A stretch of DNA of 64,000 nt, taken from positions 4,278,001-4,342,000 of the forward strand of contig CM102288.1 in assembly GCA_046563655.1 (NCBI GenBank), in the 5' to 3' direction. The position numbers and the translations under genes were made by a program. The notes below the pieces were generated by a model that did not search any database, was not told the DNA's origin, and saw only the letters and a program-made list of their open reading frames with translations. Below, one piece after another: positions 19,659 through 61,320 of this stretch. This DNA comes from Yuukianura sp. NJ FZ-2021. Lineage: Eukaryota. Position 1 is the first letter of the stretch, and each line of letters opens with the position of its first letter.

Positions 19659-22600
19659 CTACATAACCCATATTTTTGATTTGTACAAATTGATCGAGTA
19701 GGAGTCGGCTGTCGCCAGAATCGGTTTGTACGGATGAAAATGCAGCGAGGTAACGGTCCCCATTCTTCCAGAAATAAAAAGTCCTTCACGAATTGCATTT
19801 GCCAAAAACGTTTGTGCACCGTGAAAACCGTAGACGTTCACTGAATGATTTAGGCAGCCACTGTTAAAAACAATGCAAAGAATGTTCAAAAAAATTGTAA
19901 GTTTTAAGTTTTAGTTTAAAAAAAAACTTACGTTGCAAAGTAAGGTATGTGCGGATGAACCGCAAAGGCAGATATGTCCGTCGTCGTGTCAATTGTTCTC
20001 GTGGTGCCCTTTGACCTCAAGTCAAAAAATTTCACTCTTCCACTCAGACTTCCAGCAACAATTGTCCTATCATGTCGTAAACTAGCTCCAGCGATTATCG
20101 ATTCTCCAAAATCCCGCCATGTCACAACACCACATTCTGCTGGTGGCAATCGAATGTCAATTACTCTCACGGCTCCTTCTTCTAAGCCCAAAACGACTAG
20201 ATTTGGTTCTACAATAACAAAAACAACACTCAATTACTTAAACTCACTAAGATGACTGAATAGAAGTAATCAATTACCGCATCTATGGATATCAATCGAA
20301 GTGACAAGAGTTTCATGACTCGTAGGCCAGTCACCAACTTTCAGTTCTGATTTCATATCCCAAACTCGAACAATCTTGGAATCACCGCTGGCCAATATCT
20401 TTTCTCTCTCCTGGTCCCATTTGACTAACAGTCCAAGGGATTTTGAAGATTTGGCCAATTGACCAATTTCTGACAGAGCATTCCATGCCAAAATTAACCT
20501 AAAACGAAAAAAAAAAACACAAACTAAATTCAAGAATCCAACACATGTGCCAACGATGGAACTGAAATTTTGCCATCTTTTACTCCGTACTTTGGTTTTC
20601 CTTTTTCGTAATCCGGTTTCCAAGCTCTCAAACTTCCATCGTCAGCCCCAACCAGAACCAAACTTTCGTCATGTGCATTGATCCACTCCAAAGATGTTAT
20701 CCGACTGTCGTTACTGTTTTCCCATTTTCCAAGCAACTTTTGCGAATCTCCTGTTCAAAATTAGATTTATCAAAACTTTTCCCCAAATAACCAAACTTTT
20801 TTCAAAATCGTATCATACCATATTCATATAAGGAATACGTCGATCCCTCCGAAGTCAGTAACAGTTTTTCGTAGTCATGAAGGCGAACGATTGACGGCGT
20901 GGCTGACGACAGTGCAAAACTAAACGATGGATAAGAAGTAGGTGCCGTTGGTGTATTTCCATGCGAATGGTGAATTCCTCTTGAACTAAAAACTTGCTCA
21001 TCAATTTTTCCTGGAAAGGCCTTTGGACGTCGAAAACATTCTTTTCTCGTTAGAGTATTCCGAATGTACCTACAAGATCAATCAATTATTATTTAACAGT
21101 CTACACAGTTATTCAATTTTTAGTTTCCACTGACCTCCACTCTCTCGTATGATGAGCCGGATCTTGTGTGTCCATGACATTGTTCTTTGACCTTGAGAAC
21201 CCGAATCCAAGGCCATTGGAGTGTCCAGGAATAGTTGGTCTCGCAAATCTGTCCCAACACCACTCAACATACTTGGTTCCAATAATAGGGCAAATCTCTT
21301 TTCCTTTGCCAGCATCTCCACCAGCATTTGGATCCGCATTTCCTGAAGAAGCCACAGAATGTCCACTAGCAACTGAACTACTCCTCGTAGGGGTCAGTGA
21401 TCCCTGTGCACTAATGCTATTAGTGATCAACGGGGAAGGGGATCCTGGAGTGCTCAACTTCACTACATCAAAATCAAATCAAAAAGCACAACACAAAATT
21501 TAAGCCAAAACAATTCAAAAACAGAAATCAAACCGAAAAAATCTACGTCAAAAATTGCACCATCTTCTAAAAAATGTTTAGGTTTGACCTTGAAGTGTCA
21601 CAGATCAACGACTTACTCGGTCCACTGGAGCTTAGCAGTTCTCTAGCCCTATGTCGAATATGGTCCATGACAGTTTTAGCTAAAAGGGCTACCCCTGGCG
21701 ACGGATCCTTCTCAAATTGGGCCATCGCTGTATACACTTTTCCGTAGATTCCGCCCATTGACAAATGTGATTTCCCTGCACCACCAGAACCAGGACTAAA
21801 GGCCAACACTATTACACAAATTAATTAAAATATATAAATTAATATAATAAGTTACGTCCAATATGCATATTCCCAAGCAAGTTAACGTATGAGCTTGACT
21901 TACTTAAAGCTGAGAGTGAGCTGCTCGAGGATACTTTTCGCATTGAGTCCAAGCTTGAAGCATGCGTCTCTGCCCCAGTGACAGTTGCCGCTGGATTAGC
22001 ACTACTCAGTAGTTTCATTCTCGTCTGACTCGAAATTCTACGCATACCCCCACCACCGGCCGGGGATGATTGCAATTCTAAGTTTAAAATTTCAAAACGA
22101 TGAAGTTTTAACATTGAAATTAACATTTTACAATTAAAAAAAAACGTGACGGACAGACAGGCTGACCGACAAAGTCGTCTCAATAGTCATCGGGGAAAAA
22201 AAAGAAAACAAAACGATAACGTCGACAATGTCACAAGCTGGCAGAATTCCCCAGTTTGTTTTTAGGCTTTCTTTGCGCAATGCAAGTTTGGACTCCACGT
22301 TGTTAGATTTTAGTTATTCCAGCAACATTGAATTCAAGTTAGTGTTGATTTTAAGCAAATTGGATCAACGTACCTTGGTTAATGATACTGTGCTGCTCGA
22401 TTGCAACAAAATTGTTTTCAAAAACAAGCATGAAATTGTGCAGAGCTACTACAAGTTCCTGTCGCACTAGCGGTGACGCTTCATCTGTACACAGTTTGTT
22501 CACGAGGGTAAGAGCCACTTGATGGTCAATTGCATTTGCATGTTCAGTTCTCTCTGTCGTTGAGTTGATGAAAGTTCCAAGGGCATAGACCGCTGCTGCA

Positions 22601-25600
22601 CGAACTTCTGGATCCTCTTCGCCCAGTAAACTGTAAATTTTTTCATGTGCTGAATCACGAACTCCGCACCATCGTGCTGGTGAAAAGTCTGCCCACGTCA
22701 AACCGAGACAAATGCAAACCCATCTTCTCAGCTCACGATCGTTTTCATCTGCAAAACGCCACATAAAAATTATTACACATTTAGAAGCTTAAGACATTCA
22801 AAATGTCAGATATCGATTCGTCTATAAATTGGAGTTGCTTTAACCAGTTAAATTTCAAGTCTTAGTTTTTTAAAAAATCGATTGAATTAATTTACCTAAA
22901 GCTTCAAGGCAAGTGGCGATAGAACTGGATTGAAGCGCAGCTTGTTGACCTTGTCGAAAACTTCTGACGATATTCGTTAGAACAAACACAGCCATTGTTC
23001 TGTGCTCACACGGAAGTGTTGTGTCTCCCACGATTGAAATGAAGTACTTGTGGCTTCCATCTCGCACTAGGTCCGATTGGCAGCTCTGGAAGTCAAAATC
23101 ACATGGTCAATTAGTATACATTTACTGAATTCCTAAAAGAATTTTTAGAACTAGCACTCACGTGATCAACTGCAAGAATTTTTGCCCAAATGAAAACTAG
23201 CAGGGGCCGCAACTCCCGAGCCGACGATTGGAGCAGTTTCAGCACATACGGAAATATGCCGACAGATAAAGCAAGGTTCACAGCCCACCAACCCAAGTCC
23301 AAAAATCTGAAAAATTAACGAAATTTTGAAAAAGTCAAGCTCTAGAATTCTCATAATGACCTCTGACCTTACCTTCCCAACAGTTCAAGAGCCCTGACGC
23401 GATGAACCTGACTAAGGAGAACTTGGAGCACAATTGGTAATTGTTCCGGTGGTTGTCTCGATTCACTTCCATGTTCCAGCCATACTTGGAACGCTGTGAG
23501 CTGCTCTTCGAAGAATGGAGATGGAATATAAGTGGGTGTAACGGCTGTTTCAATGTTGTTATTGCCATTAACTGCTCCGTTAGTAGTAGCAGCACCAGCC
23601 ACGTGAGTTGTCGCTTGAAGATCCTCCAGTACTCCGGGTAGTTGATTCAGACAGAGGTCAAGTGCAAAGTCCCAAGCAGCCCACATAGGATGCTACAATA
23701 AGAAAAAGTTACGTAATTTGAGACATAGTTTTATAAATTATAGAAACTTAAAAAAAATACTTGTGAAGTCGGCGGTAATTTTGGAGATGAAGTAGGAGTG
23801 CAGTCGTAAGTTCTCATTATCCGTTCAGCCAGTAAAAAATTACGAAAAAGACTTGCCACGAGGAGGTCTTGCCGAAAAAGCCTAAAAATTGAAATATATT
23901 TTTACAAAAAGTCGTTTTTGGTCGTTCTGATGTAAATCGTTTCAAATCACCTTTGAAACAAACTTCGCGGCAGCGTATTCCATGCAATCGTGTCCGTTAT
24001 TGCTGTAAAAATCCAATTGAGTTCACCCAACATTGTGCGTCGATCATTCAGTTGACCAGGGACTCTAAAAAACAACATTTCTTTGAACTACGAAACAAAT
24101 GGCTGAAGAATCGCGAAAAACTCACTTGTCAATCATTTCCGGAACAATTTTTGGTATGAGTTTGTCTTTGTTATGTAGAATGAACCATTTAAGAGCAATT
24201 TTGATGGGCGTGGTGAGGCATGCCGTAAATAAGTCAGCTGGAAGATCCGGATTCATTGGAAGAATTTGATTTTCACCACAAGCACCAAGTTGAATACATC
24301 CACCAAAGTTAGGAGCTGGACAGCCAGTCAACGCCATCGATTTAGAACACAAGTCCTGGTTTTCAAAAAATCAAACATGAAATTAGCAGTTACCAAAGAT
24401 GTGTCAAAAGGTGAAGTTACCAACGATCAGAGGTTTCAATTCAAGTAAAATTACGAAAATTAAAAACCAACAATAATTACTAAAACTGACAAAGAGTTCT
24501 TTTTCTCTAAAAAGCAACGGTAAAATACACGCTTGCAAATCAACAAAGCAGCAACAAATCGGAACTGAGAAGTGATTGGATTTATGGAATAAACTTTGCA
24601 AAAACATTTGCAAAAACTTTGCAACCTTTGATGAGTTTCTTCCTCTCCGCTCCCTTTCGTCAATCTGTTCAAATAGTTCCGAGAAAAAGCATAGATTTTT
24701 AAATTCAATCTGCGTAACTAGCCTCTGAATCAATACTTTCATACTTACTACATCGACGTTGTTAATAATTAATGCTGCGTACTACACGTTAAAAGTAGTT
24801 TTTCATTTTCGAACGAGCAACCTACAAAGATTTTTTGAGACTTTACCTCGTATTCCTTTTCATGTTGCTCTGCAAACTGATGGAATGACTTGATGACGAG
24901 CCCTGCATTTGAGCAATCGTAGACGTAGATTGAGGGTGATCCCATCCATGTCTGTAAGTCGTAAATGCTGAGCGGAATGTACTGTGTGTAGTTCTGAAAA
25001 TCAAATACAAAATTACTTAAGAGAAAGCAAAGTTATCGACAAATTACTTCTTTCCGAACGTACTCGATTGAACACCCATATTTCTCCGTTGGTCGTCGGT
25101 TGCGGAACACCGTGTCCATTGTAATGAAACAGCACTCGTTCATCTTTTGCATTTCGACGGAGAGAGGTACATAACTTTTTGACTTCGTCCACAGTCGGGT
25201 CCAAGCTCGTTTTGTATCGTGCTCTAGGCTGCCATCTGATTAACGCAAACGTTTTCATTAAAAACGCGTTCGCAAGTTGCACAGTTAGATACAGTTCTGT
25301 GGAAAGGACTTGGATAGTGCTCACCGTTCGTACTGCTTTTGAAGTGAACTGCCGATTTGTTCCAAAGCTTTCTGAGGACTCAAAGTCAGTGGATCTAGAA
25401 ACAAAAAGTACATCACGAATGAAATACCATTCTAATCGGTTGATGTAGTAGAATCATATGGTTTCTGATTGAGTCCGAACCTATCCAACACTCAAGTCGG
25501 GCGCATGGTTGCATTTTGATGATTCCAGGCGGATCAACTCCAACGTTTAGGCACACCACCAATGCAACACTCACCGTTTTCATCTAAAAGCAACATATTA

Positions 25601-30480: not shown

Positions 30481-32709
30481 ATGGGTGCCAACCTGGCCAC
30501 AATGGACATTGCAAATCGTTCTCCGCCAATCAACGGCCAAAACATTGATCTCAATGAAACAGTTCCGTGCGAAGTAAGTGAAAATCCAATTTTTAAAAAT
30601 TTGCTGGAACTTGAAATCTTATCCAACTTTTTGGCATTTTTTAGATCCTGGCTGAGATCCTTCGATTCGTCGGTTCTCCTGACGACTTGACTCAGTACAG
30701 AGATGTCTGTGCTCTCTGGAGAAACATCATTGATGAAGTAATTGGCGTGGATCTTCATGTTGGCCATCGAGATCGAACTATCTGGGCAGACTATACCGGA
30801 ACAGCATTCCAATCGCCCGAGGCCATGTCACTTGTGGGAGTCAAGAAGTGTTACATTAGCAACATCGATGAATTTAACCCAGACGGTTCACGTCCATGCC
30901 CAACCTGGAAGACTCCGCAGCTTGTCCAGTATCTCTGGATTGACGGCTACATTCGTGCTGCGACTTTCAATTCGATTACGGCACACTTAAGTCATCTCGA
31001 GACGCTGGAACTTCATTTCACTACACTTGCTTCAGCTGGATCGCTGGAAGATTTCAGCTTCAACGAAGGATTGGCTTCTATTCAAAAATTGACTGTTCGA
31101 ATGGCTGGCGTTGAAGAAGCGACAAAATTGGACTCGATCGGCACTGGAATTGGAAATGCAATTGTGCTTTTGACGGTAGCCAACATTCGGAGACTGGCAG
31201 AGCTGTCGCTAAGTTTCCCATTGGTTGAGCGTATGAACAGTGCTCTGACTACGGTCATTACTCATTGTCTCCAGCGACATTCGGCTTCACTTCGGAACTT
31301 CAGTCTCTACTTCACCCGTTATGCTGAGACTTCTAAACATTTGAATGGTAACTTTTCTAATTTGGACTTTTTTTTATGAATTTTATGAATTTTGAAGAAT
31401 TTTCTTCATTTTGCTTTCAGAATTGGCTCTTCCACGATCGCTTCCGCTCGAGCCTGCTGACCTTGGATCTACAAATTTTGGACTGACTTCGGTCAAAATC
31501 TCATGCATACAACTGGATCATCAGCTCATGAAGCCATTTGAAGATTTGATTGTGGATCAGCGTCACCTAGCTGAGTTGTGTTGCTTTACAAAATACTTGC
31601 CACCGGATCTGGCATTTCAACCAATCCGGAACTGCTGCAACACATTGAAGTCTATTCAACTGGCGTTGAAGGCTGGCATTGATTTCCACTCAGGAGATAC
31701 GCCGTACCGTCCAATCAACCTCTCACCGTTCGAGCGGTGTGTCAACTTGGAATTTTTGGAGTTGATTGGGCGAGAGCCAGAGACTTTTCCAGATGACGCT
31801 GAAGTCCCTGACCTGGTTAACACAGCGGCCCTTCCTGCCAGTCTTCGTGTCCTAACGCTGTCGAACTTCTATTTGACTTCTACAGACTGCAGCGAACTTG
31901 TATCAAAGCCGAACTTAAAGATTCTTCGTCTTTACTACGCCGGGACCATGGGTGACCTTGGACTTCCGTTCAGCGGCCTTGTCCAAATTTTATCTCAGAA
32001 GAAACTGGAAAAAATCTATTTGAATTCTTCAGTCAATGTGCCGAGCATCAAAGTCGCAGCAATGTCCGATGATGTAACGCACTCCGTCTCGGCAACCCTG
32101 GCTTCACGTCAATTCCATGTGCCCTATGGCTTTGGCGCTGAGCTGAAGGATGGATTCTACGAAGTGGGTTATTCAGGTGACTTTACTACCCAGCCGCCAA
32201 TGACGGTCGTCCGGGACGTCTTCCTGACGGACGAAGACGTCAGTCCGTACGTCAGTGATGAAGAAGAAGAAGACGATGAAGACGACGACGAGGGTGTTGA
32301 TGGGGTGTCGGACGAGAGTGACGGAAGTGTCTACGAACCGGACTCGGAAGATGAGGAAGAAGATGACGACGATGATGCTGAAGTTTCTGCTGGAGAAAAC
32401 GAATCTGAAGATGATGCTGAAGTTTCTGCTGGAGAAAACGAATCTGAAGATGATGCTGAAGTTTCTGCTGGAGAAAACGAATCTGAAGATGATGCTGAAG
32501 TTTCTGCTGGAGAAAACGAATCTGAAGATGATGCTGAAGTTTCTGCTGGAGAAAACGAATCTGAAGATGATGCTGAAGTTTCTGCTGGAGAAAACGAATC
32601 TGAAGATGATGCTGAAGATGCTGCCGGACAAAACAATTCTGAAGATGATGATTCCGAAGCAGACGATTCTGGACTAGACAACCTTGAGGATGACGAGGAA
32701 GCAATTTAA
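30481..32709 (+). CDS. F-box / LRR-like protein with an acidic tandem-repeat C-terminus
   Basis: F-box ...VPCE|ILAEILRFV...YRDVCALWRNII, Leu-rich repeats (LSHLETLELH, CVNLEFLELIG, LRVLTLSNF) and an Asp/Glu-rich tail. Confidence 0.7.
32371..32617 (+). repeat. Coding 39-bp tandem repeat, 6 copies plus a partial copy (DDAEVSAGENESE)
   Basis: GATGATGCTGAAGTTTCTGCTGGAGAAAACGAATCTGAA repeated head-to-tail with no visible substitutions. Confidence 0.95.
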
Positions 32710-40706: not shown

Positions 40707-41110
40707 ACTCATATTTCAAAATAGAATTTCAATCAAATTTGAAAATCAAATAAAAATTTCGAAAAAGAGGAAAACATTTATTTTTAGCATTTTCAATCAT
40801 AATCCATAATCTCTAAACCGGAAGTTCACTCTGATCCACTTTACCTTTGTTTCCTCAATTAAGACAAATAAAGGTCAAAGGTCAATGGAAAATGACAGAA
40901 TTTAGAAGAAAACGTAACTTGAGCAGCCATTAACTTTGCACTTCACGTATGAAGTCAAGAATGAAACTGAAAAAATACAATCTGAAAGTTTTTTTTTTTT
41001 TTTGAATTTTGAAAATATTTTGAAAAACTGTTTTGAGCATGTTTTGAAAACTAAAGCTACTTTCTTGGCACTGCTGCTTTTCGAAAGCTCGTCATTTTGA
41101 TGTGATGAAT

Positions 41111-43465
41111 TTAGAAACGAGTTTCATATTTGTATGTTTGGGTGGCACCACTTGTGACTGGCTCAGTCGTGGTGGAGTACGAATATGTTCCAGAGCCACC
41201 ACTAGGTGAAGCAGTTCGGAAGGACCCACCAAGGGAACTTCCAAGAGTCCCACCACCACCACCCGATTCTGTTGCTGCAAAAGCTGAGCCACCACCGGAA
41301 GAGGAGTAACTGTAGCCTCCACCCATTCCAGATCCACCTCCAATTCCACCGCTCTGAGTGGAGTAGCTCATGCTACCACCACCTCCACCTCCTCCGAGGC
41401 TAATTCCTCCTCCACCTCCTCCGAGACTCATTCCTCCTCCACCACCACTGCTTTGCTGTGTGTAGCTAATGCTACCTCCACCTCCGCCTCCTCCGAGACT
41501 CATTCCTCCTCCACCTCCTCCTAGACTAATCCCACCACCACCACCACTGCTTTGCTGTGTGTAGCTAATGCTACCACCACCACCTCCAACGCTCATGCCA
41601 GATCCACCACCGCTTTGGTGGGTCGCAAAACTAAGGTCACCGCCTCCTCCTCCTCCTCCTCCAACTGTTTGCATAGTGTAGCTGATGCCACCACCTCCAC
41701 CTCCTCCTGTTGTGTAGTACTCCGGTGTTGTTTCAGTAATCGTTCGCGTGGTTTTTTTGATTTCAAATGTCGGTGTAATCTGCGCCTCCAAAGCCAGTTT
41801 CATGCGTTCCTCATGCTGTTCCAGCATTCGTGCCAATCTGTTAGTGTGACAAATTAATAGTTTTAATCAATTAACTGTTGATTAATAGTTAAGTGTCAAC
41901 TAACTACAATTAATGCATTTGAGTGCTAACTAACTACAATTATTAATGTATGTTTATAAAGTTAGGTAGTTTTAAAAGTCCAGCGCAAGTGCAGAAGGTT
42001 TAGTGTGAGGTTACGTACGAGAGTTTTTGAAACGTTAAAAAATGTTCGATAACAGCTCCAAATTTGTACTCTTTATTTGTCAGACGTTGGTCAGTAAATC
42101 GCTGAAAAGTTGATGAGGTATGAAATTTTTTGAAATTCATAACTGAAAAATTCAAAATTTCAAAAAACGTTTGTAACTTGAACAAATCTGTATTTGGCTA
42201 ACCTCTCTTCTTCGGACTCCAGTAGACTTCTGTATGTTGCAATTTCGTTGTCCAATCCAACCTTGATTTCCATCAGCTGTTGATAGTCTGTCAGAAGCTG
42301 GAAGCGTTCCGCTTGCATGCTACGAATCAGCTCTTCGAGTCTCGTGCGTTCAGCAGCAAACGCTGACTTGTCACCAGCCCATCCAAGTTCCATATCTCTC
42401 AATTGTTCTTCCAAGTGAGACTTCTCGGACGTAAGCAAAGCCAACTTCTTCTCCAAACTTGACAACTTCAGAGTCAGACTTGACATGTCACCACCTTGAC
42501 CTTCCAGGCTGACCCGGAGTCTTGAAATTTCCGACTGAAGTGCCTGTTGTTTCTTGGTGTAAAGTTGTTCCTGTTCTTCCCGGTGACTGTACAGTTGAAG
42601 TTCACAGTCAGCACGGAGTTGGCGAATAGCGTCGGCCAATCGAGCATCGTACTCCAGTTTCAGTTGTCCAGTGACTTGCTGTGTCTCTTCACCCCGACTG
42701 ATCATCAGTTCAGAAAATTGTTGCTGATGAACTTGCATCTTCATCTGAACTTCATCTTCCTTCTGACGGAGTTGATGTTCCAGGTCAACTTTATTGATGG
42801 CCTCAACTTCATACATGTTTTGAACTTCTTCGAATTCCTTCGTGACCTTGGTCAGCCTCTCTTGAAGTTCAGTTTTTTCGCGGGAAAGTTTTTGACGATC
42901 GTCATCCCGACCTTTGATGTCCATCGTGAGGCTGGCAATTCTGGCTTGGAGCGTTTTGATCGTTCGGTTCAAGTTTGCCACTTCGTCCTCCGTCGTTCGA
43001 AGCCTAAAGCATAGAAAAGTGTTTAGAAAATTTTTGAAAACCGATTTGTAAAAAGTTTCAAAATTTTTTACCTCTCAAGAATTGTGTTGTACTCAGTTTG
43101 AAGTTTCTTGAACTGCATCTCGAGTCGGACTTTGTCCTTTTGCGTATCTTGCAACGTTAAACGGAGTGTGCTCGTCTCTTCCTCAAACGTCTTCGTCAGC
43201 TCATTTGTGATCAGCGTCAACTTGACGTTGGCGTCCCGCAACTAAAAAATTCCAAAAAGTTGACAGATCAGATGATTCATCAGAGATTTCAAGAATTGTG
43301 ACGGTTGACCTCTGACCTGAGCTTGCAAAAGTGAATTTTCCTGTTCCAGTTGTCTGTTGCGTGATAGAATTGAAGCGAGTCGGTCGTTGAGCGAAACGAG
43401 TGCATTCTTTTCGTCAATTCGAGAAAGCGAAATGAGACGCGTCGTTGGCGACATTGGGCGTTCAT
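41111..43465 (-). CDS. Lamin-derived intermediate filament protein with a Gly/Ser/Tyr-rich tail (no lamin tail domain, NLS or CaaX)
   Basis: Exons 43465-43317, 43241-43072, 43003-42203 and 41837-41111 splice in frame. Coil 1A: MSPTTRLISLSRIDEKNALVSLNDRLASILSRNRQLEQEN. Coil 2 end: YQQLMEIKVGLDNEIATYRSLLESEEERL. Poly-Gly tail ending YKYETRF*. Confidence 0.9.
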
Positions 43466-44748
43466 CTGTAACCAAGATTTAATAAAATATGTATTACATC
43501 AAATACATTTTATTGTTTAATGTAATGATACAGTAATGTATTTTTATGCATTTCATGTTGTATTCGCAACTTCTACAGTGACTATTCCAAAAATACCTTG
43601 CAGAACTATCCCTTAACTGTTTTAATATTTTAGTTTCTCCTATAGCCAAAACATAAAATTTTTTGAATGGCATAAAAATTGCAAAGTAGGAAATTGGCAA
43701 TTAGCCATTGAGCAAACTGCGTATATGAAAAGGTCCAATTTCAAATTAAAATTGTAAACAGCAATTATTTCGCAAGAAAGAAGAATTCGCGAATTTTGAA
43801 CAGCAAAAAATTCGCGAATTCCCGGTGACCTTTAAACCAGAAACATTTTATGTAAATGTTTTTGCACTCCTCTTACACGCTTCTCCTCTCTTCCTTCATC
43901 TTCATCCTTCAATCTTGTTTTTGCCAAAAACAGACGAAAGTCAACTTTTCTTTGCAATTTTTTCTTCTCAGTTTTGAAAAATCTCTTTCTAAAAACAAGA
44001 ATGAAGATGAGTTTACTATTTATGCCCCATCTTTCTTGTGTAACCAACCGGATCATCAACCACTTAGCCTCTCCAGTGTCCACGGTCACCCTCAGTGTCC
44101 GTAGACATAAACATCTATCTACTGTACTACAATGTATGACAATGGACACCGAATTAATTGAATTCAGTTAGTGTGTCCACCGGTTGACCTTCGTTTTGTT
44201 GTTGTCACGGAACACAACTTTACAACAATTTGGACAACTTGTCCAGGCCAAGTCGTCGCCTAAGGCTAGGCTCGTTGGCCTTGAATTGGCCCAATTATTT
44301 ATCCAATTTTTGCAACTTTGGTTGAATTCAAAGTGGCAGAGTTGAACTTTTATGCAAATGGTTGCAAATGAAAGTGACAATAAAGAATTTGGCAAACTGG
44401 CAAAAATGGGTACTACCCTAATTTCCATAGCGGTTTTTCTTGATTTTTTAAATATAACTTTATCACTTTACATGAGTGTTTTTGAAAATTTTGAAATTGA
44501 ATTTTGATTTTAGACATAAAAACAAACTGGTTTGCTTTTTTTTTTCGCAAATTCCCAAATTTTTCTGAATTCCTGGACCTTGATTTGCAAATGATTCACG
44601 CCAATTGAATCAAAGTAAAAATTGTGTTGCCGAAGTTTTAAAAAATCTTAGGTTAAAAGAGGTTTCTGATGGCTTTTTTTGCTCAACGATGGATTTTTGA
44701 AAACTATTCGTATGTGTTTTTTTTTCAAAATTTTAAAAAGTTCCTCAC

Positions 44749-46555
44749 CTAAGATGGGACTGGAGATGGAGAATTTTGAACTGACGGAAGTGCTGTTTCC
44801 GGTAGTCGAGATGTCGCCGTTGCTAAGTCCGAGTGTTAGGTTAGGGTGAGATTTATTTGGATCGTTCGTAGTGTAGTGAATTTCCCGCGTAATTTGTTGT
44901 GGTTCGTTCGTAGTGTAGTGAGTTTCCCGCGTCATTTGTTGTGGTTCGGTCGTATAGTGAATTTCCCGTGTAATTTGTTGTGGTTCTTGTTGTTGAGACC
45001 GTACTTGATTCTCAATCCATTGATTCAGCTGGCCATCTTGTCTGAGTCTGTTGAGGTCGTCCATGGAAATGTTCAAGCGTTGTCCAGTACTCGTGGTCAG
45101 CAAAACCGGTTGGTTTCCGGTGAAACTGTTGCTGTGCTGAACATTTTTTCCGGTAATCGTTTCAGTGATTTGAATCGGTTGTTGACCGCCAGTCGAAGAG
45201 CTGATGATAGTACCGTGTTGATGTGTCGGTTGGCCACCGCCAGTCGTGTTGATGATTACCGTTTCTTGTGTCTGAGTCGTCGGTTTGCCAATGATAGTCG
45301 TACCGGTGATTACATTGCCCTGAGCCAGCTGAGCACCGGTCAGCTGACCTCCATCAGCTGAACTGATGATTACCGTTTCGTGTCCACTTCCGCCACCCTG
45401 GAGACTGATTTGACCACCACCTCCAGATTGCATTGAGATTTGACCACCTCCAGATTGCATTGAGATTTGACCACCTCCACCTCCTTGTTGAGATGTAGTA
45501 GTAGTGAAGCTTCCAGTACCACCGCTACGCTGAATTCCAATCTGAGAATCAATAGTTGGCATTGTACGACTCGGCTTGACCACTTCACCCGATCCGGAAG
45601 TTGACGAACTAATTGTAATCTGACCTCCAGCTGATCCTGATCTTGGCTGTTCCTGGTTACGAGCGTCCTTGGTTTCGAATGTTAACTGACCCGACGGGTT
45701 TAAGTCCTTGAGGTCACGTGACTTTGTTGTCATGTCTTGTCCACCTTCCTTTCCCTCTGGATGTTCAAGTACTTTTAAATCCTTGAGTTGATGTTGTCGC
45801 TCTGGATGCTCAAGCTCCTTTGGTTCCTTTTGCTCAAGTTCTCGCAGTTTTGTGTCGGGATGCTCAAGGTGTTTGAGATCATGGAGCTCATGGACACGAT
45901 GCAGTCCATCAGGATGTTCGAGTGGTTTCACGTCTTTGAGGTCACGCGGTTTGGGTTCCGGATGGTCCAACTGCCTAAGTTCGTGCGGTTTGTGATCGGG
46001 ATGGTCCAATTCTCGCAATTCGTGCGTTTTGGGCTCAGGATGGTCTAACTGCCGGAGTTCGTGCGTTTTGGGCTCGGGATGTTCCAAATGCCGGAGTTCG
46101 TGCGTTTTGGGCTCTGGATGGTCCAACTTCCGGAGTTCGTGCGTTTTGGGCTCGGGACGGTCCAACTCTTTGAGGTGCGAAGCTTCATGGGCAGTGTGTC
46201 CAGGACGTTCGAGATGTTTCAACTCGTGTTTCGGCGAGTTCGAGCCGAAACCCAAACCGATTTTTGGTGCTCCAATGCCCACACCAACGTGTGGAGAATG
46301 TCGGCCAGCAACACCTGAAACGTCACCCGCTATCTCACCTGCTGCTGCTGCCGTAGCATCTCCTGCCGCCTTTGTATCAACACTGGCGCCTGCACTAAGT
46401 CCACCGGTTCCAACTTCACCTTCTCCTCCACCGACAGCGATTCCACCGGAAATGCCAGTCCCACCAGCAGTGGCTCCAGCGCTAACTTCAAGCCCTGCCT
46501 TCTTCGCTTCTTGCTCTTTCTTCTTTTCCGTCGAACCTCGAAAAATCTTCTTCAT
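44749..46555 (-). CDS. Large low-complexity, repeat-rich exon; probable extended head of the IF protein
   Basis: ~602 uninterrupted codons from the ATG at 46555 (MKKIFRGS...) to a phase-1 donor TTA G|GTGAG at 44749/44748. This phase matches the acceptor of the first rod exon at 43465. Confidence 0.65.
45935..46180 (-). repeat. Coding 39-bp (13-aa) His-rich repeats, KTHELRxLDHPEP
   Basis: About five well-conserved units plus degenerate flanking copies, visible in both DNA (GAGTTCGTGCGTTTTGGGCTC on +) and protein. Confidence 0.9.
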
Positions 46556-47619
46556 CACGACGATCCCCCTTGTAAGGTAAAGTTAAGGTCACCACTGGCG
46601 GGTCAAAGGTCACTGACCTGTAAATAAAGTAATCTTTTAGAAAAGTTCTCATTTTTGTTTAAATTAGGACTTCCATCGTGCTACTCCTCCGAATTCCAAA
46701 GCATCAAAATCTAGCAAAAAGTGTCGAAATTTTGGAGAAAAGAAATAGAAAAAAGTTATTTATTACCGATTTAAGAATTGGAAGATTGAGTTTGGATTTT
46801 TCTTTCGAAAACTTCAGAACACTTCAAATCGCGTCTTCCTTTTAAACGAGAAACTTTTAACACGCCTTTTGCGGAGGTAAGGACTGTGTGGTGACTGATC
46901 CACCTTCGCTCAGCGATTGGCGTGAATTTGTTCCTTGCCTTGGAACTTTATCGTTCAAATTGTATAATGTCTTCGTCAATTCAACTAGTTTTTGGTTGAT
47001 TTGAATTATTAAGGAGTGTTGGTAGGTAAAAGTGAAGGGAATGTGAAGATTCCACTTTTTCACTTAAAAAAGAACGAAAAGTTGTTTGGCTAGTTTTAAT
47101 TTCAGAAAGTAGTTGTGACCAAGCGTGTACCTCTCTACACATGACATATCACTCACTTTTGCCTTCACTTTTTTGGATTTTGTGGACAAGGACGTCAACA
47201 AATGAGGCTTTTTGCAAGTTAGCATTCGTTTTGATCAACAAAAATTTGGATGCACACGCTACAGGCTTTGAGTAATTCCACTTGTTCTTCTGTGAATTCT
47301 TAATTTTCTGCAAGGATTTGTCTTTAAATCACAATGAATTTTACACACCTATATCTAATGACTGCCTGATTTATTCTATTCTTCTGTGTTGTTTAATTTA
47401 TTCCTACTGTTCCACATTCCTTGGAGTGTCACTCATCATTTTAAGGCCGCCATACTTTCCAGTTTGGTTTAACTCAAACTTGCAAATATTGGCACAGAAT
47501 TTCAAAAAAGAGAAAAAAATAAGAGAGAAAAATAAAAATAAGCAAACTTGCAAATTTTAGCACAGAATTCCAAAAAAGAGAGAGTAAAAAAATATAGTTT
47601 TGAGAAAAATCAAAGCCAA

Positions 47620-54952: not shown

Positions 54953-57900
54953 TCATTCGTCCAAAATCGTCGTCGTAGTTTTCTGAGTTTCAGGATGTTC
55001 TGGAGCGACATTGTCGTCATCAGTGGGAGTACTTTGTTGCTCAATGTCGTCATCGAACGGCGACATTTCTTCATCTGGTTCACGTGCTTCCGGAATATCT
55101 TCTAGAATTGGGGAGAGTGCAGGGTGAAACGGATTGGTCAATTCCCGTCGCGTATCTTTTGCCGTTGCGAATTTGGTAACGAACGGAATCGTTGAGGAGA
55201 TGAGGGAAGAGGCGACGAGAAACATTCCAGCCAACATGAAGGGAACGTCGTAAGACTGGAATGTGTCATACAGAAATCCTACAAAGGACAACCAAAAACG
55301 TTTTTCAAAAACAACTTTTTCAATTTTTCAAAATTTTGAAAACTTCTCTTTCTCTCAGTTCTTATGCTCTAAAGACACATTTATTATGACGCCTAAACCC
55401 AAGTAACAAGGAATGGAAACAGAAAGGTAGAAAAAACCGAAAAACGAAACGAAAACCCCGGAAAAGCCTGAATTCAAAAATTCATAACTGGTATATGTGA
55501 TGCCCTGGAAGACTTTGCTTGACTTGGAGAATTTTTTCATAATTTCATGAAAGTTTTTCATAATTTCATGTTTATTTATAGGATTAGAACAAAATCTGTA
55601 GTTACCTGCGAATGGACTACCGATGATTGACGCAAATCCTCTGAAGAACATGAGGAGTCCAAAAGCGTTGGTCAAGTTGTCGAGTCCAAGGAGGTCAACT
55701 AGTGTGATCGAAGTAAGGGCAATGAACCCTGACAGAAACAGGCCAAACAAGACGTAGATGACGATGAGGGACACATACGTTGGACACCACGGAACGAGTC
55801 CAACCACCACTCCCATGCCCAACAAACAAATATTGTTCAAATACAAAGAGTTAATCAGCTTCAGGTCACTCAGCATCCCGAATCCAACACGACCTACGGT
55901 ATTCATCGCTCCAATGATAGAAATCAACAGAGCAGCATCATCTCGAGGGATATCCTAAAACAGTTTAAAACAGTTTTCAAATTTTGAAATTTTTGAAATT
56001 TTTAAAATTTGAATCTTACTTTTTCAGCACAGAAGTCAATAATGTAAACAAAAGGCACGTAGAATCCAAGCATTCCGACTACTCCGCTGAGTGCAATACA
56101 AAGGAACACAGGGTTGCGCAGAAGCGTAAAATCCATAAACGACTGAAGTGATTTGACTGTAGCTGCGAGACGTCTAGTGAAGGTGGGGCAAAAGGTGGGT
56201 TTGGTCCCACCGAAGTCTTTCTGCACAGAACCGACCGTATGTAGACTCAGAATGCTTTGGCGGTAGTTGAGTGGATTCTGAGTGTATTCGGGTAGATGGG
56301 TGATTGACCCAGAATAGAAAATGTCTTTTCGAGACAAAGGGCGAATGATCCGGTGAACTGAGCCGGATGACCCTGAAATTGACCCGGGCCTCCATTTTAG
56401 ACTAGGATGAATTGACGGCAAATCGGATTTCATTTGAAGAGGTTCATCTATGGACTCTGCAATTGAAAAACTCTCGCGTCGGGATCCGATAGGTGACGGC
56501 TCAGAGTTTCTTTTGGAAAAAAACCTAAAAAGAAGTCAAAAGAGGTCAAAGGTCACATTTTAGTAAATGAAAAGTTCAAATTCATGCAAGGTTAACCTGG
56601 CACTGATGATTGACCCGGGAACGGCCTTGAATGAAAATCTCCTTTGGTCGTGGGAACTTCGCTGTTCGTCGTCGTTCAGGCAATGGTCGTCGTGCATCGG
56701 GTCATGTGATGACCCCTTGGGGTAATGTGGTGACTCAAGGTCGATTTCCTTTGACCCCAAAGTTTTTCTGGAGTTATGAAGGTTAGGGTCGTGACTACTG
56801 CTTCTAGACACCGGGCTATTTAGCACAAAAATTGCATAAGAGGTCATTGACCTTTGTGGGAGTCACGTTGACCTTTGCGTTTAAAGGTCACTTACATATT
56901 GATTCCCCTTGGGTGAATCTCTATAGACGAACTGCTTCTGCCAATTCCTTCGTCCAGTTTTTCGAGGTCTGTTGACCCCTCTGACCCCGAGCTTTGTTTC
57001 TGTTCCGTCTCTGTAATGGTCGAAAGCGGAGGGTGGATGGGGGTGAGTGGGGGAAGCGGAGTGTGTGACCCCGTGAACTGAAACTGGTCCAAATGAAATG
57101 TGGAATGGACTCCAGGGTCAATGTTCAAAGGAAGCTTTTGGCGTCGTTCCATCGTTCCATCCGGCAGTTGCACCATGAAATACTCCGATCCACTTATGGA
57201 ATTCTTTTCAAAATGCTGTTTCCGCTCTTCTGCCATGCGGTAAAGGAGGGGTCGTCGTTTGGGGTCAAGGTCAACCAGGCCTTCGTCATCTGCAAAGTCA
57301 TCCAACGCTTCGCGCTTGATTTCCAGTGGACGAATCAGAGCTCCGCAGCACTTGAGGAAAAAATTGAACGTTTTTCAAAATACGATATGAGTTTAGTAGG
57401 TCACTAATTCACATAGTCACTCCTCAATGTATTTTCAAATTTAAAATTTGTTTGAAAAAAAAAATAAGAATTTTCAATTTTGAGTTTTTTTTAACTCACC
57501 CCACAGATAAATAGGAGTCCAGCATAAATCAGGTTCACTGTGCGCCAACTCATTCGACCGGAAAGCCATGATGCCATTGGTGCAAACGAAGTAGCACCAA
57601 ATCCAGAACCGCAAACGGCAATTCCAGTGGCCAGTGCTCGTCTTTTTTCAAAATAGTAGCCAACAGACACGATGTTTGGAAGGTAAATGAAACCAAAACC
57701 GATTGCTAATTTCAAAAAAATATTTCGTTTTTGAAATTTTTTGAAAATTTGATTTTTCGAAATACTTGACCTTCATGACCTTACCACCGAGAACTCCATA
57801 AGACAGAAGCATCAGTGTCAAACTGTCAGCAAACGACGACAGGATGAACCCTATGCAAGCCACCGCACTGCCCACCATACACACCGTCCGACATCCAAAT

Positions 57901-58644
57901 TTGTTTGTACACGCTCCAACTATTATTTATATACAAATTAATATATTATTTTAATTAATTATTTTTATTATTCTTACCTATAGGTCCAATACACAGTGAG
58001 CCACCACATAACAAACTGCCGGCCCAAGCCACTTGACCTTTGCCAGCATCAAAGGACTCTGCCATTTGCGGCAGGAAAACGCCAAAAGTACATGTGATTC
58101 CGTCCAGCACCAAGTTGCACACGAAAGAAGCAAACACGATGACCCACCCGTAGCCACCATCCGGTGGCACAGGAGCCCCACCATGAATCATTTCATTCAA
58201 AATTGCCTCCTCTTCTTCCTTATCTTCAGATTGCTGACCTCCAAATGTATCTAGAATACTCTTGAAAGAGGCTTTGGAGGTCATGGAACGCAGAGATTGA
58301 CCTGACCTGTTCCCCATCACACTTGCCTTGGAGGTCATTGACCTTATGGACCTATTTAACCTTGTTTCTGACGGGGTCATGGGTTCACTCTCTCCTTCTG
58401 GAACGTACACAGGGACATGATGACTGTTTTCCATGCTAGTGTCGTGCTAGAAACAGGAAAACATGAGTCAAGAATATTTCAAATTGCTTTTCTTAAAAAT
58501 TTTTCAAAATTTTGGATTCATTGTTTTCAATTTTAGAATTTAAAATGAGTTTAATTTTACCCAATCACTTGTTTCTGGTCCGTTTGGAACAGAAATGTCA
58601 TCAGGTACACTTGAATTTGAAACTGACAGATCCTTTTCACCCAT
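54953..58644 (-). CDS. Monocarboxylate transporter (SLC16/MCT family, MFS)
   Basis: PPDGGYGWVIVFASF, YFEKRRALATGIAVCGSG, a long cytoplasmic loop with RPLSRKDIFYSGS, NTVGRV, LLGLDNLTNAFG and GSPFAG. Probable first coding exon 58644-58561. Confidence 0.93.
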
Positions 58645-59774: not shown

Positions 59775-61320
59775 TTAGATGTTATGGTGGTTACTTTTCA
59801 GTTCCCGAATCGGGTTTTTGGCAACGCCGGTTCCTTTGCGTACTTTCACTTTTTTGACTTTGTTAACAAAGTAGTGACGAACTTCGTCTCTCAATTGGAT
59901 AGTGTAAGGTTCACCAGTTAAAACCTCCCATGGATTTCCAGTTAGCTTGAGATGTTCCAGCCGAGGCACACCAGCAACCAAGGAACAAAATCCGTCAAAG
60001 TCTGGATACATCGTTCGACCATCATCGGGAAAACCGCTCAGAAAGAGGCTAAGTTTCGTTACATTTGGAAACAGTAAGTTTGCTCCATTTGACGCAATGT
60101 TTCTGCAACTGGTTAACCGAAGTTGGCGCAAACCATGGAAAGTGGTCGTCGGCAACAATGGAATGTCGTCGTAGTGAGCGCGGTTTTCAAAAAACTTGAG
60201 CTTATACAGAGGCAAAGTTTGAATACAATTCCAAATTGCAGTTTTGAGTGGCGTGTCAAGTTCAATCGGAAGTGAAATTGCAAGAGCGACAATTCTGGGT
60301 TGTGGATCCAAGGCTTCGAGTCGATTCCAAACATTTTGAAACGTATTGGTGACAATTCCGAGCCGAAGTTTGACTTTTGTAGAACGTGAGCGCAGAAGGC
60401 TTAGAAAATCTGGAAGTCTTTGCAACTCTTTTGTTCGCATTGTGTCCTCGGCATAGTTCCCATTCCTGCGGTGTCTAAGGAACTCTGGCATTCCAGCATG
60501 TTCGTAGGCGACTTCGCAGAAGTAAGGATAGTAAAGTAGCGACAGGACTTGTAGACGCGGAGAATACTGGATAACTTTTTCAAAAAATGTGGGCTGGTCG
60601 GCTGGAACTGTCCGGCGACCAAAAGGAAAATGTTCAACGAGTGCAAATTTGACCTTGAACTTTTTCAAATTCCGAAAAGCTTGAGCGTAGGTTGCAGCAT
60701 CGCCGTCAGGGAATTGTACTCCGCAGTGTCCGTAGTAAGCGACGAGTGACAGAGATGTCAAATTCGTAATGGTCATAAGCAGCCGGTGGACTGATTTAAC
60801 ATAGCGACGTTCTTCCCAAAATTCATTTGTCATCTCCCATGTCAAAGGTTCATAAATCTCATCCCGCGATATGTTGAACTGGAACGACAGTCCTGTGCGA
60901 TCCACTGAGCTGTTCATGAACTTCTTAATATCGATTGGAGCAATGTCTTGGTCAACATGGAACGTAAATTTGGAAAACGGAATTCTGTTTCCAGGAGTAG
61001 TGCGCATGAGCCATTCAAAGAAGTTGATGTCGGTGACTCTCCGGAAATGAATGGACTTGTGACGTGTTCGAAGGCTCTGCTGGGTAGCTGGATCGTCTCT
61101 CCAACTGCGACAAACGAGACGACAATTCGGAAGGTCGCTGACCGGAACGAACGAAAGTATTTCAGCGAAAACCTACAAAAAACAAAATGGATGTAAAAAA
61201 AAAAGAAGCGGGTAAATTCATTTTCATAAGGCCAAGACTCACTTCTTCTGGAAGGTCCTGAATAGAAAGTGTGTCCTCTGTTGTAATTTCCTCATCTTCC
61301 ATGTTGCCTTGTTCATCCAT
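59775..61320 (-). CDS. F-box / LRR-like protein
   Basis: MDEQG...SIQDLPEE|VFAEILSFVPVSDLPNCRLVCRSWRD is a clear F-box. It continues in frame into the 410-aa ORF with Leu-rich repeats (NLTSLSL, RLQVLSL, GLRQLRLTSC, RLEHLKL). Confidence 0.85.

Follow-up and report, generated by a model that had tools for sequence, protein, structure and literature searches.

The best explanation of the data, to which we give a probability of roughly 0.7, is that a springtail gene found in the window (the whole 64-kb stretch of DNA that was analyzed) encodes a 1,217-residue intermediate filament (IF) protein of the collembolan lamin-derived, LTD-less family, and that this protein forms cytoplasmic filaments with projecting glycine-loop ends. 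The protein is a new and much enlarged member of the known collembolan lamin-derived cytoplasmic IFs (isomin type), and a literature search found no description of such a protein.

Gene Structure and Transcript Support

The gene lies on the minus strand and is one gene with five coding exons (Table 1). Its spliced CDS of 3,654 nt has a single terminal stop and specifies a product of 130 kDa. One RNA contig (run X6) bridges exons 1-2-3-4, with joints at 44749/43465, 43317/43241 and 43072/43003, and since the 602-codon upstream exon is spliced onto the rod in this contig, the product is 1,217 aa long. Exon 1 ends in phase 1 (TTAG/gtgagg), and further RNA contigs lie within it (44905-45317 and 45802-46069). 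Between 46765 and 46615, 149 nt are skipped in a contig of run X6, with GT..AG ends on the minus strand. The RNA consists of assembled contigs of an environmental metatranscriptome that are 95–99% identical to the window, and may therefore come from a close relative; such contigs bear on individual exon joints and not on isoform ratios or on the transcript in its full length. The original prediction had the gene extending from 41111 to 43465 and starting at the latter position; the gene is about twice as large, and exon 2 begins at 43465, where the ATG does not lie in frame, the in-frame Met being at 43454. That reading also missed the 602-residue head with its glycine loops, and the membership in the known collembolan isomin-type clade.

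Table 1. Positions of gene parts and sequence features within the window.
Feature	Position	Strand	Details
5' UTR exon	46765..46900	-	5' end at or beyond 46900; RNA contig (run X6) joint 46765/46615
Exon 1	44749..46615	-	60 nt of 5' UTR with in-frame TGA; ATG 46555-46553; 602 codons, head domain
His/Pro/Glu-rich 13-residue repeats	45946..46167	-	TRF, 39 nt x 5.7
Glycine-loop repeats in head	45407..45479	-	TRF, 27 nt x 2.4, unit GGGQISMQS; ORF translation
Conserved helical motif, residues 493-522	44990..45079	-	21/40 identical to L001 head exon
14-residue repeats adjoining rod	44851..44986	-	TRF, 42 nt x 3.3
Intron 1	43466..44748	-	1283 nt; GT..AG ends; spliced out in RNA contig
Exon 2	43317..43465	-	SP site, in-frame Met 43454, coil 1A with LNDRLA; RNA joints on both sides
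Exon 3	43072..43241	-	First part of coil 1B; RNA joints 43317/43241 and 43072/43003; phmmer E 2.4e-29 against assembled rod
Exon 4	42203..43003	-	Remaining coil 1B, L12, coil 2, up to EIATYRSLLESEEER (+L from exon 5)
Intron 4, predicted	41838..42202	-	365 nt; AG/gttagc and ctaacag/, phase-compatible
Exon 5	41111..41837	-	240-residue tail and stop; TAA at 41113-41111; C-terminus ETRF

RNA-seq had been proposed as a check on the last exon. An RNA contig covers 41000-41126; the contigs of run X6 leave 41197-42375 uncovered, and neither the exon 4-5 junction nor the glycine-rich tail was seen in them. As repeats assemble poorly, this gap is not evidence of absence. We infer the junction from comparative and codon evidence: a contig of a related species (L001) has it in identical phase, with an intron of 143 nt.

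The head and tail domains are both coding and under purifying selection. Among the 29 coding variants listed, 24 are synonymous and five are non-synonymous; six of the eight listed for exon 1 are synonymous, and those listed for the tail (exon 5) divide into 11 synonymous and three non-synonymous changes. Every 1-nt indel listed for the DNA runs is located in an intron or a UTR. In DNA run X1, one 14-residue head repeat unit is missing in frame (the joint from 44891 to 44934 skips 42 nt). A second set of DNA-run joints, from 42166/7 to 44717-44723, was considered as a deletion allele and rejected, one side being only 21–22 nt long, and is taken as a short shared repeat. A search of the whole window against Rfam gave 0 matches.

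The Rod Domain

The Pfam Filament profile (PF00038) matched exon 4 (8e-30, profile positions 53-312) and exon 2 (5.8e-06, profile positions 1-31), and both of the motifs that mark the IF family, helix-initiation LNDRLA and helix-termination EIATYR-LLE-EE, can be read in the protein. The PMSPTT, LNDRLA and EIATYRSLLESEEER segments named in the original prediction are all present on the minus strand. Exon 4 is matched by 459 library proteins at E<=1e-3 and has vimentin as its best PDB match (1.1e-10); a word-index search with this exon at 'longer' lengths returned one match only, P0001.

Counted from the L of LNDRLA as far as the L of EEERL, the rod is 350 residues long, and residues 615-977 (363 residues) align gap-free, at 32–34% identity, to the lamins P0017 and P0022, both of which carry an LTD and a CaaX box. 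This agrees with the lamin-length coil 1B that had been counted by hand. In all 61 matches whose single best match spans the whole rod, the length difference is between -16 and +8 residues, and nine short-rod matches span 315–321 residues compared to 366 here. The rod is of the L-type, its coil 1B being six heptads longer than that of chordate cytoplasmic IFs, and the alignments show that the predicted rod retains the exact geometry of lamins, including the long coil 1B, the linkers and the stutter.

When exon 4 was modeled as two copies, the chains were parallel and in register, with a score of 0.47 against 0.00 for the best of three controls. Runs agreed in at least 86% of contacts, pLDDT was at least 81, and the contacts joined same-numbered residues at heptad spacing. 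Of 30 proteins solved as one-chain pairs, 21 attained the mark used for dimers, compared to 0 of the 23 solved single chains; among eukaryotes the figure was 17/29, and only 1/7 for those lacking an older solved relative. Because IF rod dimers have already been solved, the pass of exon 4 may reflect structures that the model had learned.

The Tail and the Missing Lamin Features

The Ig-fold tail, NLS and CaaX box of lamins had been reported as lacking, and this was upheld. A local HMM search for the LTD (PF00932) in all six frames gave nothing across the window (best E 0.4); in the same search 59 of 156 control proteins matched. In a regular-expression scan of the protein for an NLS, the one find was KKK at residue 11, and K and R together account for 9 of the 240 tail residues. 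The CaaX box is absent, as the protein ends in ETRF and its sole Cys (residue 842) is inside the rod. There is also no signal peptide or TM segment by hydropathy (KD), with a maximum over 19 residues of 0.99 and a mean over the first 30 residues of -0.91.

The 240-residue tail, close to the length first estimated for the glycine-loop last exon, is 35.1% Gly and contains 14 runs of at least three glycines, the longest of eight. The spacers between these runs have I, M, Y, S or D as their first residue and include I/M/L/Y/F. Among 102 matched tails of at least 30 residues, the maximum glycine content is 26.9%, compared to 35.1% here. The last exon contains GGGYSYSSSGGG, and repeats (TRF, 99 nt x 2.2) occur at 41363-41581. 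The string GGGGGGISYTQQSSGGGGG, quoted in the original prediction, conflates two separate segments, G7-ISYTMQTV and G5-SISYTQQSS-G5. The first 40 tail residues precede the glycine runs and are conserved, with 65% identity to the residues with which exon 5 of L001 opens; a Pfam search with the tail gave no match. In the available part of PMC4504709, glycine loops are defined as stretches of poly-Gly, interrupted by aromatic or long aliphatic residues, that lie in the head and/or tail of an IF. Such end domains, which are a functional class and not a family, are found here both at the tail and, as GGGQISMQS repeats, at the head.

The Head Domain

The 602-residue head is mostly disordered. It matches no Pfam family, and its AF2 model (single sequence) is of low confidence, with a mean pLDDT of 39.7. 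The sole confidently folded part is the conserved helical motif, which was modeled as helices at residues 498-506 and 510-522 (block pLDDT 61–81). The segment that encloses the 13-residue repeats (head residues 111-262) is 15.8% His and 12.5% Pro. A homologue search with the head, confined to near lengths, gave a score for none of 8,000 candidates, from which orphan status does not follow, and ESM Atlas searches with the head and with the tail gave no usable match.

The in-frame Met at 43454 sits 11 nt into exon 2 and matches the start of a short-headed relative, P0003. A start at this codon would give a head of 13 residues, the same as that of isomin. Since the Met of the ancestral short-head start is kept in frame in exon 2, it would seem that the head was added later, upstream of a core resembling isomin.

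Host and Phylogenetic Position

The exon of a neighboring gene, CDA1, is 95% identical (209/221) to CDA1 of Folsomia candida, and the host is therefore a springtail, in keeping with the arthropod originally proposed. Identity is 199/221 with Allacma fusca, 86–88% with the best insects and 69–71% with chelicerates. A nematode or rotifer origin, as suggested by short introns and F-box genes, is ruled out by the CDA1 identities.

In a 33-row tree, the query pairs with P0003 (100/100) and falls inside a clade of eight LTD-less rows (96/87) that includes Folsomia candida XP_021948444.1 and Orchesella cincta ODN01235.1. This clade is sister (100/99) to P0017, a lamin with LTD, NLS and CaaX, and a 60-row rod tree gives the same picture. 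A constraint that joined the LTD-less clade with an LTD-bearing, CaaX-less clade lost 61.6 lnL and was rejected (p-AU 0.0044, for a group defined after the tree was seen). The protein thus groups with collembolan LTD-less IFs beside lamins, which favors the lamin-derived rod of the original prediction. The rod phylogeny that it had called for was obtained in so far as the query nests with collembolan LTD-less proteins beside a lamin, but the rows of these trees are mostly metagenome proteins, and none is named as isomin, cytotardin or a nematode, mollusc or annelid cytoplasmic IF. Isomin, sought among the matches by its Arg-Pro stretch, was not found in the LTD-less clade.

In L001, exon 4 is 71% identical and the exons, phases and junction residues are the same, also where the head exon ends and exon 5 begins. 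The lineage with very large low-complexity ends is seen in at least three species, represented by the window, L001 and P0002.

Comparison with Known Intermediate Filament Proteins

As far as it is described in the available text of Mencarelli et al. 2011 (PMC3065449), isomin of Isotomurus maculatus is likewise collembolan, has an L-type rod and a Gly/Ser-enriched tail, and carries no LTD, NLS or CaaX. It is, however, a protein of 411 residues with a 13-residue head and a short tail of 20.4% Gly, compared to 1,217 residues, a 602-residue head exon and a 240-residue tail of 35% Gly here, and it has a degenerate coil 1A and a 2-residue gap at the stutter; coil 1A and the stutter are intact in the protein described here and gap-free against lamins. 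By this description, the protein is set apart from isomin proper, with its 13-residue head, short tail and ~411 residues. The accessible part of Hering et al. 2016 (PMC4829535) reassigns isomin to the lamin clade. Two members of the same LTD-less clade, Folsomia candida XP_021948444.1 (P0012, 'lamin Dm0 isoform X2') and Orchesella cincta ODN01235.1 (P0062, 'Lamin-C'), share an NRLA-IL type coil-1A signature with the protein but are only ~31–32% identical in exon 4, have 417 and 406 residues with short heads and tails and, in the case of P0012, show a 14-residue deletion in coil 1B. They and the protein described here are probably paralogous subfamilies. Nuclear lamins (P0017, P0022, Darwinula, Amblyomma) have the same rod length and register and share the SP site, but carry the NLS, LTD/Ig fold and CaaX that are all lacking here, and they do not have the huge head.

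The likeness to keratins K1 and K10 lies in the end domains. According to the portion of PMC4504709 at hand, their V1 region is 36% Gly (~35% here), with poly-Gly punctuated by aromatics, and in both cases short conserved segments flank the rod. Keratins, however, have a short, S-type rod, and the loop 'stickers' of the springtail protein are mostly I/M/L, with fewer of the aromatics typical of K1/K10. Neither Keratin_2_head nor any other Pfam family was found in the head or tail, so the protein is not a type I/II keratin, and the likeness is convergence and not membership. Cytotardin of tardigrades is also a lamin-derived IF without NLS, LTD or CaaX; in the consulted sections of Hering et al. 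2016 (PMC4829535) it is placed in the cytoplasm of ectodermal epithelia and given an independent origin in another phylum, and those sections mention no long glycine-loop ends. In C. elegans, IFC-1 as well as IFC-2 have Gly/Ser-rich tails without a lamin-homology segment (cited in PMC3065449, seen in part), and belong to the bilaterian cytoplasmic IF clade in the sections of Hering et al. seen (PMC4829535).

Alternative Explanations

It is improbable that the gene model is over-extended, with the main product being an isomin-like protein of ~400 residues that starts at Met 43454 and/or ends near the rod, and the head and tail exons belonging to minor isoforms or other transcripts. In the relative P0003 the corresponding Met is indeed the start, the head being 13 residues long and the tail short, the exon 4-5 joint occurs in no RNA contig, and the 1,283-nt intron 1 could house an internal promoter. 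Against this, the head exon is joined to exons 2-4 in an RNA contig, the tail frame shows the excess of synonymous variants (11 vs 3) and has no upstream start of its own, and L001 shows conservation, in the same phases, of the last part of the head exon and the first part of exon 5. Very unlikely, too, is a nuclear or nucleoplasmic protein of lamin type that enters by co-assembly with a canonical lamin or through an unrecognized signal, its ends serving a nuclear role. The 130 kDa protein has no NLS-like basic cluster, LTD or CaaX, and isomin was reported from the cytoplasm, in the midgut terminal web (PMC3065449, in the text available), but the rod is collinear with those of lamins, with the SP site ahead of coil 1A still in place, and a tardigrade lamin without CaaX, lamin-1, is nucleoplasmic according to the part of Hering et al. 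seen (PMC4829535).

Descent from an ancestral bilaterian cytoplasmic IF gene, and not from a lamin duplicate, would make the long coil 1B a general L-type trait of protostomes. L-type rods are common to protostome cytoplasmic IFs, and isomin was placed with nematode IFC/IFD/IFP in its original paper (both from the accessible text of PMC3065449), while the present trees had no IF rows named as nematode or mollusc. This origin is nevertheless given little credence, as the nearest LTD-bearing relative is a lamin with NLS and CaaX, the union with the LTD-bearing, CaaX-less clade is rejected, and the tree of 447 sequences by Hering et al. (PMC4829535, as excerpted) has the collembolan IFs inside arthropod lamins. 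The Gly/Ser/Tyr-rich low-complexity ends and the His-rich repeat block could also belong to a secreted or extracellular structural fiber protein that resembles silk, cement or cuticle proteins and has an IF rod as its base, but the hydrophilic N-terminus offers no signal peptide or TM segment and there is no Cys outside the rod, which leaves this a far-fetched reading.

Proposed Function and Significance

On the preferred reading of a cytoplasmic, lamin-derived IF, the rod would form parallel, in-register coiled-coil dimers and these, in turn, cytoplasmic 10-nm filaments; filament formation and function are proposed here from the features of the protein. We infer a cytoplasmic location from the missing NLS, CaaX and LTD together with the size: with no NLS or membrane anchor, and too large for passive nuclear entry, the protein would stay in the cytoplasm. 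The disordered head (602 residues) and tail (240 residues) would project from the filament surface. There, by analogy, the glycine loops may act as G3-8 spacers with aliphatic or aromatic 'stickers', making weak multivalent contacts that would gather filaments into bundles or link them to further proteins rich in glycine, along the lines proposed for keratins K1/K10, and cross-links that depend on pH or metals may be contributed by the His/Pro/acidic 13-residue repeats. The protein probably serves to strengthen an epithelium mechanically (epidermis or gut). A bolder version, put forward tentatively, is a springtail 'epidermal keratin': a lamin-derived IF that would have gained K1/K10-like loops at both ends, by addition of an upstream exon and expansion of repeats, as well as a His-rich, possibly metal- or pH-switchable block, and that would form a bundled, elastic cytoplasmic network backing a thin, non-wetting integument.

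Textbooks present arthropods as animals that lack cytoplasmic intermediate filaments, and the exceptions known to us (isomin, copepod IFs and tardigrade cytotardin) are of small size and have minimal end domains. Diversification has taken place within the collembolan lamin-derived family, one lineage of which has evolved very large end domains of low complexity, similar in kind to those that confer bundling and elasticity on the epidermal keratins of mammals. This offers an example of a new coding exon recruited upstream of an old start codon, and a case provided by nature in which to test whether glycine loops serve generally for contacts between filaments. If the epidermal keratin proposal is true, the keratin design principle would have been invented a second time, independently, in animals long thought to be without cytoplasmic IFs.

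Gene structure and transcription

Stop-to-stop ORFs and reading of the sequence gave four consecutive coding pieces on the minus strand between 43465 and 41111 (exons 2–5 in the table below), with GT..AG at every splice site and compatible phases throughout. The original prediction, which took 43465 as the gene start and 41111..43465 as its extent, proved too short. The ATG at 43465 is not in frame and immediately follows a good acceptor (ttacag), and a 644-codon open frame lies upstream, ending in TTAG/gtgagg, in a phase (1) that matches the exon 2 acceptor. Public runs were aligned over 41000–46900, including an RNA run (X6) of metatranscriptome contigs 95–99% identical to the window. One 473-nt X6 contig splices the upstream exon onto exon 2 (44749 to 43465, 1,283 nt skipped) and carries the joints 43317 to 43241 and 43072 to 43003. 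A second shows a 5' UTR exon at 46765 spliced to 46615, and two more fall within the upstream (head) exon. Between 46615 and the ATG at 46555 the frame is interrupted by a TGA, which fixes the start codon at 46555. At the 3' end, X6 contigs cover 41000–41126 only, and the exon 4–5 junction lies outside RNA coverage. The spliced CDS of 3,654 nt specifies 1,217 residues (130.5 kDa, pI 5.9), with a head of about 612, a rod of 366 and a tail of 240 residues.

Features of the intermediate-filament (IF) gene and its surroundings (window coordinates)
Feature	Position	Strand	Remarks
SPX-EXS (XPR1-like) gene	7795-9543	+	
Chitin deacetylase 1 (CDA1)	10837-11957	-	
Raptor	22351-25453	-	Raptor_N + HEAT
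Open frame, 483 residues	26870-28321	+	regularly spaced Cys-rich repeats of ~45 residues; no Pfam family
F-box/LRR-like ORF	30645-32709	+	single exon; no Pfam match; ends in 6-7 acidic 13-residue repeats
IF gene, exon 5	41837-41111	-	glycine-rich tail, C-terminus ETRF then TAA
IF gene, exon 4	43003-42203	-	remaining rod
IF gene, exon 3	43241-43072	-	rod continuation
IF gene, exon 2	43465-43317	-	SP site + coil 1A
IF gene, upstream open frame	44648-46582	-	head
MFS transporter	55355-58446	-	
F-box/LRR-like ORF	59775-61172	-	single exon; Pfam F-box 1.8e-06
GH31 glycosidase	63439-63999	+	

Genes are densely packed in the window and their introns are short. The SPX-EXS, CDA1, Raptor, MFS and GH31 genes are ordinary neighbours, and two of the window's large ORFs are single-exon and F-box/LRR-like. 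The CDA1 exon is closest to collembolan sequences (209/221 identical to Folsomia candida CDA1 and 199/221 to Allacma fusca, against 86–88% identity to the best insects and Daphnia and 69–71% to chelicerates), so the window comes from a springtail.

Conservation of the head and tail exons

Between the window and the DNA runs X1 and X5 and RNA run X6, 24 of the 29 listed coding differences are synonymous third-position changes. Among listed variants the tail has 11 synonymous and 3 non-synonymous changes and the head 6 and 2, and all listed 1-nt indels fall in introns or UTRs. A 42-nt in-frame deletion in X1 (44892–44933) removes exactly one 14-residue head repeat, and is a copy-number polymorphism of these repeats. 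X1 and X5 contigs also join 42166–42167 (intron 4) to 44717–44723 (intron 1), with a short side of 21–22 nt; a short repeat common to both introns is probably responsible, rather than a deletion allele.

A metagenome contig from a related species (L001) has the same gene architecture: a Gly/Ser/Tyr-rich head exon ending in phase 1, the RPMSPTT stretch in exon 2, equal end phases for exons 3 and 4, and an exon 4 that is 71% identical across all 267 residues. Identity is 65% over the first 40 residues of exon 5 and 53% over a 40-residue head motif. The exon 4–5 intron is 143 nt in L001 vs 365 nt in the window, and the contig stops before the expected beginning of the glycine tail. P0002, from a third source species, is a 69% identical single-exon fragment terminating at the equivalent exon 4 end. 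The variants, indels, L001 and P0002 lend independent support to the head and tail exons.

In both species an out-of-frame ATG opens exon 2 (window 43463–43465; L001 about 1856–1858). The in-frame Met at 43454, 11 nt downstream, corresponds to the Met at which P0003, a relative with a short head, begins. This suggests that an earlier start codon has become internal; the head exon would apparently have been recruited upstream of an isomin-like core.

The rod

Pfam Filament matches exon 4 (8e-30) and the coil-1A exon (5.8e-06), and 350 residues separate the L of LNDRLA from the L of EEERL. Residues 615–977 align without gaps to P0017 and P0022, both of which carry a lamin tail domain (LTD) and CaaX box; a 14-residue deletion in coil 1B of the LTD-less Folsomia protein is not shared by the window protein. 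Rod length differs by -16 to +8 residues in 61/61 matches with one full-length match, while nine short-rod matches span 315–321 residues. The rod has no Pro, and its heptad register shifts near residue 935, the expected stutter position. The top PDB match is vimentin (1.1e-10), and lamin fragments match too.

Modelled as two copies, exon 4 passed with a score of 0.47 (best of three controls, 0.00), the pass mark being one reached by 21/30 proteins solved as pairs of one chain and 0/23 single chains; among eukaryotes it was reached by 17/29, but by 1/7 without an older solved relative. Agreement of contacts between runs was at least 86% and pLDDT at least 81. Contacts are same-numbered, so the modelled dimer is parallel and in register, with a break at the position of rod linker L12. 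The model shows likeness, which may reflect the predictor's prior exposure to IF dimers, as such dimers are already solved.

Lamin features and relatives

The predicted lack of an LTD, NLS and CaaX was borne out. A local LTD HMM, which matched 59/156 control proteins, found none across all six frames of the 64-kb window (lowest E 0.4), nor was a second IF rod found there. The C-terminus has no CaaX, the sole Cys being residue 842, and the 1,217 residues contain no basic cluster apart from KKK at residue 11, and neither a signal peptide nor a TM segment (KD19 hydropathy peaks at 0.99).

Scanning 1.84 billion representatives in full with HMMER returned 459 matches at E<=1e-3, of which the 15 best (P0002–P0016) all lack an LTD. 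In a careful IQ-TREE analysis of 33 rods (UFBoot/SH-aLRT), the query groups with P0003 (100/100), all eight LTD-less rows form a clade (96/87), and this clade joins the lamin P0017 (100/99); a quick tree of 60 rows agrees. The clade's named members come from Folsomia candida ('lamin Dm0 isoform X2', 417 aa) and Orchesella cincta ('Lamin-C', 406 aa). An alternative grouping with an LTD-bearing, CaaX-less clade, which includes Brachionus and Neoechinorhynchus entries, was disfavored when forced (cost 61.6 lnL, p-AU 0.0044, for a group defined after the tree was seen). The rod trees match the placement in Hering et al. 2016 (PMC4829535), where isomin and other collembolan transcripts fall inside arthropod lamins and independent lamin-derived cytoplasmic IFs are inferred in collembolans, copepods and tardigrades; a 2025 preprint repeats this view. 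Elsewhere in the match set, four proteins of 664–754 residues (P0031, P0072, P0104 and P0132) carry a PDZ domain at the N-terminus, joined to a complete L-type IF rod, and no LTD; they form a 100/100 clade sister to three LTD+CaaX lamins.

Head and tail domains

The motifs described in the original prediction are present in the sequence, except that one quoted string merges two adjacent repeats. The tail, which has no Pfam match, is 35.1% Gly (maximum 26.9% among 102 match tails of at least 30 residues). It has 14 runs of three or more Gly, the longest of eight, with spacers such as ISL, MSL, SISYTQQSS and YSYSSS; runs and spacers partly form 99-nt repeats. The head is exceeded in length by only 1 of 47 match heads of at least 30 residues. 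It contains 13-residue His/Pro/acidic repeats (residues 111–262 are 15.8% His), GGGQISMQS glycine loops and 14-residue repeats adjoining the rod. AF2 predicts it to be disordered (mean pLDDT 39.7) except at residues 481–525, where its two predicted helices fall on the motif that L001 shares.

Complete clade members in the match set have tails of about 10–47 residues, compared with 240 here. Isomin, as described in PMC3065449, is 411 residues long; its head measures 13 residues, its short tail is 20.4% Gly, and the protein is reported from the terminal web of the midgut. According to PMC4504709, the V1 region of K1/K10 is 36% Gly and its poly-Gly is interrupted by aromatic residues, whereas in the loops of the window protein the interrupting residues are chiefly I, M and L, along with some Y and F.

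The literature searched yielded no account of a protein of this kind. Its cytoplasmic location, its tissue, its assembly into filaments and what its loops and His repeats do are inferences; the gene itself is real, expressed and conserved, and it adds a greatly enlarged form with glycine-loop ends to the collembolan family of lamin-derived IFs already known.
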